This document shows positions 62,502 through 62,926 of a stretch of DNA of 64,000 bases, piece by piece. The stretch lies in the UHGV virus genome UHGV-0179803; one strand, written 5' to 3'. Positions within the stretch are counted from its first letter, which is position 1; each line of letters starts with the position of its first letter. Under the pieces are notes generated by a model. That model saw only the letters and a program-made list of their open reading frames with translations, did no database searches and was not told the DNA's origin. A program made the position numbers and the translations under genes. Source of the DNA: a virus.

Positions 62502-62926
62502 TATGCAACGATAACATGGCGCGACCGGAGGGAGCGACATAATAACGCTGAGTGACAATAACACCCCCGTGTTATTATCCAGCATTATTATCTCGCTAAT
62601 TTATGATTATCTCATAAATTAACATGTAATAATCCTCAGCGTTATTATGTCCTCCAATAACAATAAAAATTGTTATGGTAACGCTGAGTTATTACTATGT
62701 TAATAAAAGGGCATAAAGCCCGGTACTATGTACCATTAAATAATCTAAAACGATTACGTTTTCTCAGCGTTATTGTGTCAAATGTTATGATAACAGTATA
62801 TAATTATCTTGCTAACTTTCAGTATACATATTCCGCGTAGCGTCATGTGGAGCGTGTAGTAAACCTGTAGCAAGATAAGAATAACGCTGAGGTATTGTAC
62901 CGTATGCAACGATAACATGGCGCAAC
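62502..62926. repeat. repeat cluster: five TAACGCTGAG copies in alternating orientation, bounded by a 21-bp direct repeat
   Basis: TAACGCTGAG at 62543(+), 62636(-), 62679(+), 62763(-), 62882(+); TATGCAACGATAACATGGCGC at 62502 and 62902. Confidence 0.6.

Follow-up and report, generated by a model that had tools for sequence, protein, structure and literature searches.

The cosB site of phage lambda comprises terminase-binding R sites with an IHF bend, oppositely oriented, less than about 200 bp from the cut and on one side of it only. The adeno-associated virus (AAV) inverted terminal repeat, the herpes simplex virus (HSV) oriS palindrome and single-strand initiation or primosome sites consist of an outer stem around two or three hairpins, ~125-250 nt in all; such hairpin elements fold only when single-stranded and are read by replication proteins. 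Here we analyze a repeat cluster at positions 62502-62926 (hereafter, the module) in a 64-kb stretch of the virus genome UHGV-0179803 (64,000 nucleotides; hereafter, the window), which belongs to a divergent rV5-like (Vequintavirinae) myovirus. The module is best described as a repeat and palindrome cluster of the kind found at phage genome ends, marked out by clear covariation over six genera, and its function is one that we infer.

T7-type phages must duplicate their terminal repeat before or during packaging (PMC4281155), and hairpin DNA species have been reported in T7 infection (PMC4281155, citing Chung and Hinkle 1990). In T5, Repeat Region 3 has been proposed as an injection-stop signal, a function still debated (bioRxiv 10.1101/866236). 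The duplication and recognition of short direct terminal repeats are poorly understood, even in T7. Phages of the rV5 type are common on E. coli, Klebsiella and Salmonella and are often isolated with a view to phage therapy and biocontrol; their gene-free region of ~2.5 kb has until now carried the label "non-coding" only. For a published description, a transcriptome or an origin of this region, literature searches gave nothing past that label, the one that the authors of the rV5 genome gave to its gap (PMC3606486).

Results

The repeat units are pairing arms of one branched fold

The repeat core TAACGCTGAG occurs five times in the window, at 62543 (+), 62635 (-), 62679 (+), 62763 (-) and 62882 (+), with no sixth copy; ~0.04 matches are expected by chance, and none of 100 shuffles reached five. 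An earlier note on this DNA, made from the letters alone, had reported five units in strict +,-,+,-,+ order, and the exact count bears this out. The longer form of the unit that it gave holds in part: the full 17-mer GACATAATAACGCTGAG is exact in units 1 (62536-62552) and 2 (62635-62651, minus strand) only, whereas the other three are shorter or altered, unit 4 (GACACAATAACGCTGAG) being one base off the 17-mer and the common core shrinking to TAACGCTGAG in unit 3 and to AATAACGCTGAG in unit 5. The note was also right that a 21-bp direct repeat bounds the cluster, TATGCAACGATAACATGGCGC being present in two exact copies (62502-62522 and 62903-62923) with no further match in the window at up to 3 mismatches and none expected by chance, and that the cluster lies between the small-gene array, whose last gene ends at 61793, and the DnaA boxes at 63440, 63452 and 63471. 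What it missed is that the alternating orientation is that of base-pairing hairpin arms, kept by compensatory change. The units alternate because they are the pairing arms of hairpins. At least eight unrelated inverted-repeat pairs nest into one predicted branched fold, and the units are simply the easiest to see among them.

As single-stranded DNA (ssDNA), the module (425 nt) folds with a minimum free energy of -77.3 kcal/mol, compared with -39.6 +/- 4.2 kcal/mol for shuffled sequences (z = -9.0). The corresponding z values are -7.9 for the rV5 module and -8.3 for that of an Erwinia phage, and -0.46 for a neighbouring non-coding control. When segments of 150 nt are slid across 61400-64000, the module is the sole strong peak (z down to -9.5), and so it is in rV5, where the scan covered the full gap with the terminal repeat and right-arm side included. 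The predicted fold runs from a 21-bp stem formed by units 1 and 2, which encloses hairpins A and B, through hairpin C to a 12-bp stem formed by units 4 and 5, which encloses another hairpin (Table 1). In the window phage, the stem-loop domain that follows the long stem is made of extra arm copies. The module is one conserved element consisting of two direct boxes, a GC-rich anchor and a long perfect stem that encloses two or three hairpins, a structural description in which we place high confidence.

Complementarity is under selection across six genera

The module was traced across relatives by synteny and short conserved motifs, since direct DNA searches had missed it. Sensitive searches with rV5 and KPP-1 queries find it in 120 Vequintavirus records, essentially as a single copy per genome, and also in 63 records from Klebsiella, Salmonella, Cronobacter, Proteus, Raoultella, Enterobacter and Erwinia phages. 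In rV5, a 20-bp direct repeat (ATGCAAACGAATGGCATGGC, copies 294 bp apart) frames the inverted pair GACATAATATAAAAGCAG and a CCCC-loop hairpin. All close relatives carry a homologue of the framing repeat, with a spacing of 227-401 bp.

The close relatives of the window are only two IMG/VR contigs, L003 and L004 (~140 kb, one metagenome, 3300045988), whose framing repeats are spaced by 243 bp and 380 bp, respectively. When the three are aligned, the stretch that begins with the AT-rich tract, takes in framing repeat 1, unit 1 and hairpin A and closes with unit 2 is almost invariant, although the DNA around the module is only 77-86% identical; unit 5 and framing repeat 2 are conserved as well. 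Units 3 and 4 are absent from L003; in L004 they show a paired change (TAACGCTGgG with CcCAGCGTTA).

Over a wider range, the two arms of the long stem pair without a single mismatch for 17-21 bp in 23 of 23 genomes from six genera, while the arm sequence itself is lineage-specific (Table 1); the 17-bp exact core of long stem 1 pairs perfectly in the window and in all relatives. The conserved anchor GCGCGA...GCGACA precedes the long stem in 22 genomes of five genera and takes the variant form GGCGAGCGTAGCGAGCC in the sixth. At the place of hairpin A, rV5 has CATCAC-CCCC-GTGAT, with other stem bases.

Covariation was assessed with RNAalifold on an alignment of seven Mydovirus and Seunavirus modules, which yielded 59 pairs with 98.8% of cells paired. 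Two-sided changes that keep the pair occur at 7 of the 59, and a one-sided change (G-C to G-U) at one pair in a single sequence. None of 500 shuffles reached the observed pairing, the double-change count or the covariation score, and zero double changes were left when the partners were slid by one to three columns. Lineage insertions fall inside hairpin loops (53 nt in Mydo, 47 nt in L004). Among 12 Vequintavirus phages, the ~220-nt core is nearly invariant, so that covariation within this genus is uninformative; the spacer before framing repeat 2 is rich in insertions and deletions.

Collectively, pairing complementarity is under selection across six genera of rV5-like phages. That complementarity is kept while the arm sequence changes is not the behaviour of protein boxes; the two framing boxes, which as direct repeats cannot pair, are still candidate protein-recognition sites. 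The core is also under sequence-level constraint, presumably from protein recognition.

The module lies beside the predicted genome end

Two relatives have mapped ends. The record of vB_EcoM_Gotham begins at the physical end, with a mapped direct terminal repeat of 459 bp (PMC7471380), and KPP-1 has a 514-bp direct terminal repeat at 116,316-116,829, located by doubled coverage and PhageTerm (PMC9862379). From the end inward, Gotham shows the terminal repeat (1-459), short iterons, the framed module (595-845), AT-rich DNA and a first gene transcribed end-ward. Similarity between the window and Gotham ends precisely with the first base of Gotham, at window position 63839, and a multiple alignment puts the inner boundary of the terminal repeat at 63135/63136 in the window. 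The independently mapped KPP-1 boundaries fall at positions homologous to those of the window, namely GCTA/AACACAATTCTCTCTCCTTGTCAAG in KPP-1 and GCCT/AACAAATTTCGTTCTTTTTGTCAAC in the window for the inner boundary, and CCGTC/TAGCACCGCAGATGG and CTGCC/TAATACCTCAGATGT for the outer one (a slash marks the boundary).

By this homology, the ends in the window are likely at 63135/63136 and 63839/63840, candidate cut or nick sites 209 bp and 913 bp downstream of the module. With the predicted terminal repeat at 63136-63839, the window spans the physical genome end, and 63840-64000 is therefore right-arm DNA. The module occupies unique DNA inward of the inner boundary and always on one side; the distance is 135 bp in Gotham, 209 bp in the window and 308 bp in KPP-1. 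The 21-bp framing repeats were also considered as terminal-repeat boundaries, which is ruled out, as the mapped Gotham and KPP-1 repeats lie beside the module and not on it. Among the options that the earlier note offered, a terminase site (pac or cos) fits in so far as the module adjoins a packaging terminus; yet the module is not the terminus itself, as it ends 209 bp from the nearer end predicted by homology to the two mapped relatives. Both predicted ends map outside the cluster, and by the refuting condition that the earlier note itself set, the cut-site reading fails. The module is possibly a nearby terminase recognition site, 209 bp being compatible with a site of the cosB type.

The motif TGCCTAA stands at both window boundaries (63131 and 63836) and has only seven copies on that strand in the 64 kb. 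Elsewhere, a GYCAGRCA-like motif is found at both boundaries in the rV5 group, and CTA(A/G)..CAC in KPP-1. All three are candidate nuclease targets, and TGCCTAA and the GYCAGRCA-like motif are better candidates than any part of the module.

In the right-arm DNA just past the outer boundary, CTCTTCA(A/G)G occurs three or four times on one strand in several lineages (63968 in the window; 1452, 1514 and 1760 in L004; 6477, 6560, 6595 and 7009 in L001), and this array is an alternative candidate for packaging recognition.

The three consensus DnaA boxes (TGTGGATAA) have the same orientation and lie within 42 bp (63439-63480), inside the predicted terminal repeat and ~500 bp from the module. They are kept in L003 and L004, and the whole block is absent from rV5 and Gotham; any recruitment of host DnaA would be clade-specific.

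Possible functions of the module

The module is probably a signal, so far undescribed, that serves either the copying or the packaging of the genome end. Tentatively, we favor a hairpin element that acts in cis when the genome end is replicated or processed. Such an element would function at the level of DNA and not of RNA or protein: neither folding nor covariation shows a strand bias, and a DNA-level structure, with hairpins on either strand or a cruciform, is therefore favored, although the symmetry may also be compatible with transcripts from both strands. An origin-type feature is present in the AT-rich tract (85.1% A+T) beside the repeated elements; the right end of this tract, next to the module (62440-62480), is nearly invariant in L003 and L004, and the tract is possibly an easily unwound region.

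In the mechanism that we propose, DNA near the end would become unwound or single-stranded, for which the AT-rich tract, the lagging-strand template and a displaced strand are possible places, and the arms would then fold up as a branched hairpin. The T7-like replication machinery (primase-helicase and family A polymerase) would recognize this hairpin along with the boxes on its flanks and use it as an origin-like priming or landmark site. The adjacent terminal repeat would thereby be replicated and duplicated, and concatemers would form and resolve into genomes with a repeat at each end. In favor of this mechanism are the folding energies, covariation, conservation and end-proximal position described above, the T7-type primase-helicase and family A DNA polymerase encoded in the window, and the need of T7-type phages to duplicate their repeat, with the hairpin species reported for T7. 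A bolder proposal, which we consider rather unlikely, is that the module represents an unrecognized class of genome-end replication element. Its branched DNA hairpin would have the shape of an AAV terminal repeat, yet would lie inward of a direct terminal repeat; it would fold on the displaced or lagging strand and prime or position the synthesis by which the terminal repeat is duplicated. If true, this would offer a first sequence-defined way into the question of how phages beyond the T7 group regenerate short direct terminal repeats.

Several points weigh against a replication hairpin. The single-stranded or cruciform state of the module DNA is one that we infer, and with 82-217 nt enclosed by the long stems, extrusion from an intact duplex is unfavorable. 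The invariance of the core within a genus exceeds what the structure needs, which suggests protein recognition and fits a packaging signal equally, and gene conversion between inverted copies could partly maintain the perfect arms. Moreover, no rV5-like phage has a mapped origin; the skew analysis of rV5 is uninformative, as it tracked the direction of transcription only (PMC3606486). Because the DnaA boxes are clade-specific and absent from rV5, they lend no support to a general origin role. A weak conflict with fixed ends comes from one Vequintavirus that PhageTerm called "headful", with terminal repeats reported too (PMC13211470).

The most serious alternative, although on balance unlikely, is a packaging signal akin to pac or cosB: the small terminase subunit would assemble on the module, from which the enzyme would nick or cut at the terminal-repeat boundaries 209 and 913 bp away and start directional packaging, the repeats being protein boxes. 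Consistent with this, the module is one-sided, its distance from the inner boundary is short and varies little among three lineages, its core is nearly invariant within a genus, two direct boxes flank it and there is one module per genome; lambda cosB likewise has oppositely oriented terminase sites near its cut. A single binding protein is insufficient, however, to explain why at least eight unrelated inverted-repeat pairs covary for pairing, and arms that differ wholly between genera and are still perfectly complementary are unlike known pac or cos boxes. Moreover, a separate candidate cut motif (TGCCTAA) stands at both repeat boundaries, and CTCTTCA(A/G)G, beyond the other side of the repeat, is an equally plausible recognition site.

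Strand symmetry bears on another alternative, an RNA-level element, in which the hairpins, transcribed from one or both strands, would form a non-coding structured RNA, provide RNase III processing sites or block transcription in both directions between the convergent gene arrays. On either strand, RNA folds of five modules from three genera reach z values of -4.5 to -10.8, the transcription units on the two sides of the module converge, the annotators of phage Murica put a terminator inside it, and strict Watson-Crick pairing is expected if transcripts of both strands must fold. Nevertheless, we regard this explanation as improbable. No Rfam family reached its threshold, the best score being 30.8 bits against a gathering cutoff of 55.2 (an unrelated plastid element), and promoter-like sites are not enriched (12 found, 9.7 expected); in other genera, reading by eye revealed no convincing promoters conserved around the module. 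Terminator-like sites (a stem plus a T-run) are found only at 61812-61837, 61875-61888 and 62265-62279 and none lies in the module, whose AT-rich stems and very long loops are unlike intrinsic terminators; a canonical two-way terminator already stands after the last gene, ~700 bp upstream. Only one stem change is one-sided (the single G-C to G-U), and the five modules show no strand asymmetry.

By analogy with T5, the module and the DnaA boxes might instead arrest or delay the DNA end as it enters, or protect it against nucleases. Repeat Region 3 of T5 is a gene-free nest of palindromes, repeats and DnaA boxes that straddles the inner boundary of the left repeat in a conserved order (bioRxiv 10.1101/866236), and three consensus DnaA boxes lie ~500 bp from the window module. 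This entry or anchoring role is highly improbable: between the genome end and the module there are no genes whose staged expression a pause could serve, as it does in T5; rV5, Gotham and the other genera with the module lack the DnaA boxes; a sensitive search with the region found no sequence similarity to T5-like phages; and the T5 function is itself a proposal.

Finally, a miniature transposable element (the direct repeats as insertion scars) or a plasmid-type partition site (the units as centromere-like boxes), both raised by the earlier note, match in superficial layout only, inverted repeats within a direct repeat, and are scarcely credible, given that a sensitive search of 5,426 complete E. 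coli genomes and 72,556 plasmids gave no match, that the unit is found nowhere else in the 64-kb window, that the module sits as a single copy at an orthologous site in more than 180 phage genomes, that the 20-21-bp framing repeat frames variable content at one locus and is conserved between clades and therefore not a recent target duplication, and that nothing supports partition in what resembles a lytic myovirus with a T7-like replisome, where the open reading frames scanned are structural, rII or replication genes, although no systematic ParA/ParB search was made.

Features of the module and its surroundings

Table 1. Features of the module and its neighbours in the window, and long-stem arms of the rV5-like lineages
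Feature	Position	Strand	Sequence or basis
AT-rich tract	62340-62480		85.1% A+T; adjoins framing repeat 1
Framing direct repeat, copy 1	62502-62522	+	TATGCAACGATAACATGGCGC; exact 21-mer, two copies only
GC-rich anchor	62519-62539	+	GCGCGA...GCGACA; leads into the long stem; 22/23 genomes, five genera
Long stem 1, 5' arm	62531-62552	+	holds unit 1 (62536-62552); predicted 21-bp stem with 62635-62655
Hairpin A	62554-62579	+	GACAATAACAC-CCCC-GTGTTATTATC; predicted 10-bp stem, CCCC loop
Hairpin B	62584-62633	+	7-bp and 10-bp helices, predicted fold; place of the 47-nt insertion in L004, flanks kept
Long stem 1, 3' arm	62635-62655	-	holds unit 2 (62635-62651); predicted fold
Hairpin C	62657-62676	+	ATAACAAT-AAAA-ATTGTTAT; predicted fold
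Unit 3	62672-62688	+	GTTATGGTAACGCTGAG; pairing possible with unit 2 or unit 4
Unit 4, 5' arm of long stem 2	62763-62779	-	predicted 12-bp stem, 62763-62774 with 62880-62891
Inner hairpin of domain 2	62804-62878	+	TTATCTTGCTA with TAGCAAGATAA; inverted pair I6, predicted fold
Unit 5, 3' arm of long stem 2	62875-62891	+	beside framing repeat 2; conserved in L003 and L004
Framing direct repeat, copy 2	62903-62923	+	TATGCAACGATAACATGGCGC; exact 21-mer
11-bp tandem iterons	63084-63135	+	GTATAGGGGAA x3, then GTATGCCT; end at the inner terminal-repeat boundary
Predicted direct terminal repeat	63136-63839		704 bp, one collapsed copy; both boundaries homologous to Gotham and KPP-1
Long-stem arm, window clade			...TAATAACGCTGAG
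Long-stem arm, Vequintavirus			...TAATATAAAAGCAG
Long-stem arm, KPP-1 and Mydo			...CAATAACACGGGAG
Long-stem arm, BIS47 and FENT2			...ACACGAGGG
Long-stem arm, Csp-D17			GACACTATAACACGAGGG
Long-stem arm, SSE121			...ACGAGAG
Long-stem arm, GAP31			...ACACGGGG
Long-stem arm, Erwinia phage (sixth genus)			GCCACCTATAAAAGCAAGTAG; 21-bp perfect stem

Between phages, small GC-rich hairpin cassettes (e.g., GGTGACCaaaGGTCACC plus TGGCATAGCCA) come and go at differing points of the module (5651-5693 in L001, ~225-271 in L004 and 62709-62734 in the window), and the main stems are undisturbed throughout. A 19-mer, TATTCCGCGTAGCGTCATG, occurs twice, at 62829-62847 and at 63415-63433, both times within an insertion that the close relatives L003 and L004 do not have; the second copy is flanked by duplicated TGAGCTGTG, and the pair could be a small duplicative insertion or a mobile mini-element. 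The iteron array of the window resembles the short repeats next to the terminal repeat of T7 and the T5 DRD repeats; rV5-group phages carry other iterons at this site (ATGTCA and GTAAACAGT types).

The window encodes tail fibre proteins, rIIA, rIIB, a T7-type primase-helicase, a family A DNA polymerase and three tRNAs, and the genome looks like that of a lytic myovirus. After the last plus-strand gene (end at 61793) and the two-way terminator (61812-61837), at least 2.2 kb run to the window end without a credible gene. The arrangement in rV5 is equal, with a 2.6-kb gap between convergent small-gene arrays.

The DNA polymerase has at most ~74% amino-acid identity to sequenced phages, rV5-like phages included (August 2025 collection). 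A megablast search of the region against phages gave no match, and a sensitive search matched only a 130-bp piece (62038-62168), at 72-75% DNA identity, in all Vequintavirus genomes; all records matched by the sensitive search are rV5-like, some of them filed under Shigella, Campylobacter or plain "Phage" names. With a polymerase this divergent and no record matching at the DNA level, the window lineage is therefore undescribed and stands near Vequintavirus. The piece at 62038-62168 lies between the terminator of the last gene and the AT-rich tract, as the sole non-coding stretch with detectable DNA similarity to Vequintavirus.

Phage Jab was considered for this lineage and, at 40% GC, does not belong to it, although its terminal repeat of 475 bp is a shared trait (PMC13538427). 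Scans of IMG/VR returned 4 chance matches in unrelated coding DNA (L010-L013) for the pattern GGCGCGAC-N-GCGACATAAT and 78 chance matches for the 15-mer TATGCAACGATAACA, the genuine ones being L003 and L004 only; a scan with the rV5 framing repeat found two contigs only.

Discussion

Our analysis yields the location of the terminal repeat in the window, candidate cut motifs at its edges and, beside it, a covarying DNA element found throughout the subfamily. The compact element is open to mutations that disrupt and restore its stems, so that the question of repeat duplication becomes directly testable, and the results are also relevant to the engineering of rV5-like phages and to the choice of genome start points in annotation.

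Among the known systems, the AAV and oriS-type elements resemble the module in shape only, as here the genome is double-stranded DNA with direct end repeats and the element is internal to the end; HSV oriS, like the module, has an AT-rich tract beside a palindrome. Lambda cosB shares oppositely oriented boxes, on one side and within ~200 bp of a terminase cut, but its boxes need no complementarity, whereas the many unrelated stems of the module covary, and it serves cohesive ends and not a direct terminal repeat. With T7, the rV5-like phages have in common a short direct terminal repeat, a T7-like replisome, tandem repeats adjoining the repeat and the need for repeat duplication. However, T7 has no comparable branched palindrome of 200-400 bp, homology was not detected, and the T7 packaging signals involve promoters of the phage RNA polymerase, which the rV5-like phages do not have.

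Repeat Region 3 of T5 and the module are both gene-free and lie at the inner edge of the left terminal repeat as nested palindromes with tandem, direct and inverted repeats; each exceeds the genes next to it in conservation, and each has a function that is so far only proposed (bioRxiv 10.1101/866236). The two share no sequence similarity, so the likeness is one of kind and not of descent. The T5 repeat is ~10 kb long, with genes between the end and the element, whereas the rV5-like repeat is 0.46-0.7 kb and has none; T5 has its DnaA boxes embedded as a fixed set, whereas those of the window are ~500 bp off, inside the terminal repeat and confined to its own clade. The module further differs from the T5 region in that compensatory change proves selection for pairing. 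Of the systems compared, Repeat Region 3 of T5 stands closest to the module in kind, and the repeat arrays and the hairpin intermediate of T7 stand closest in mechanism.

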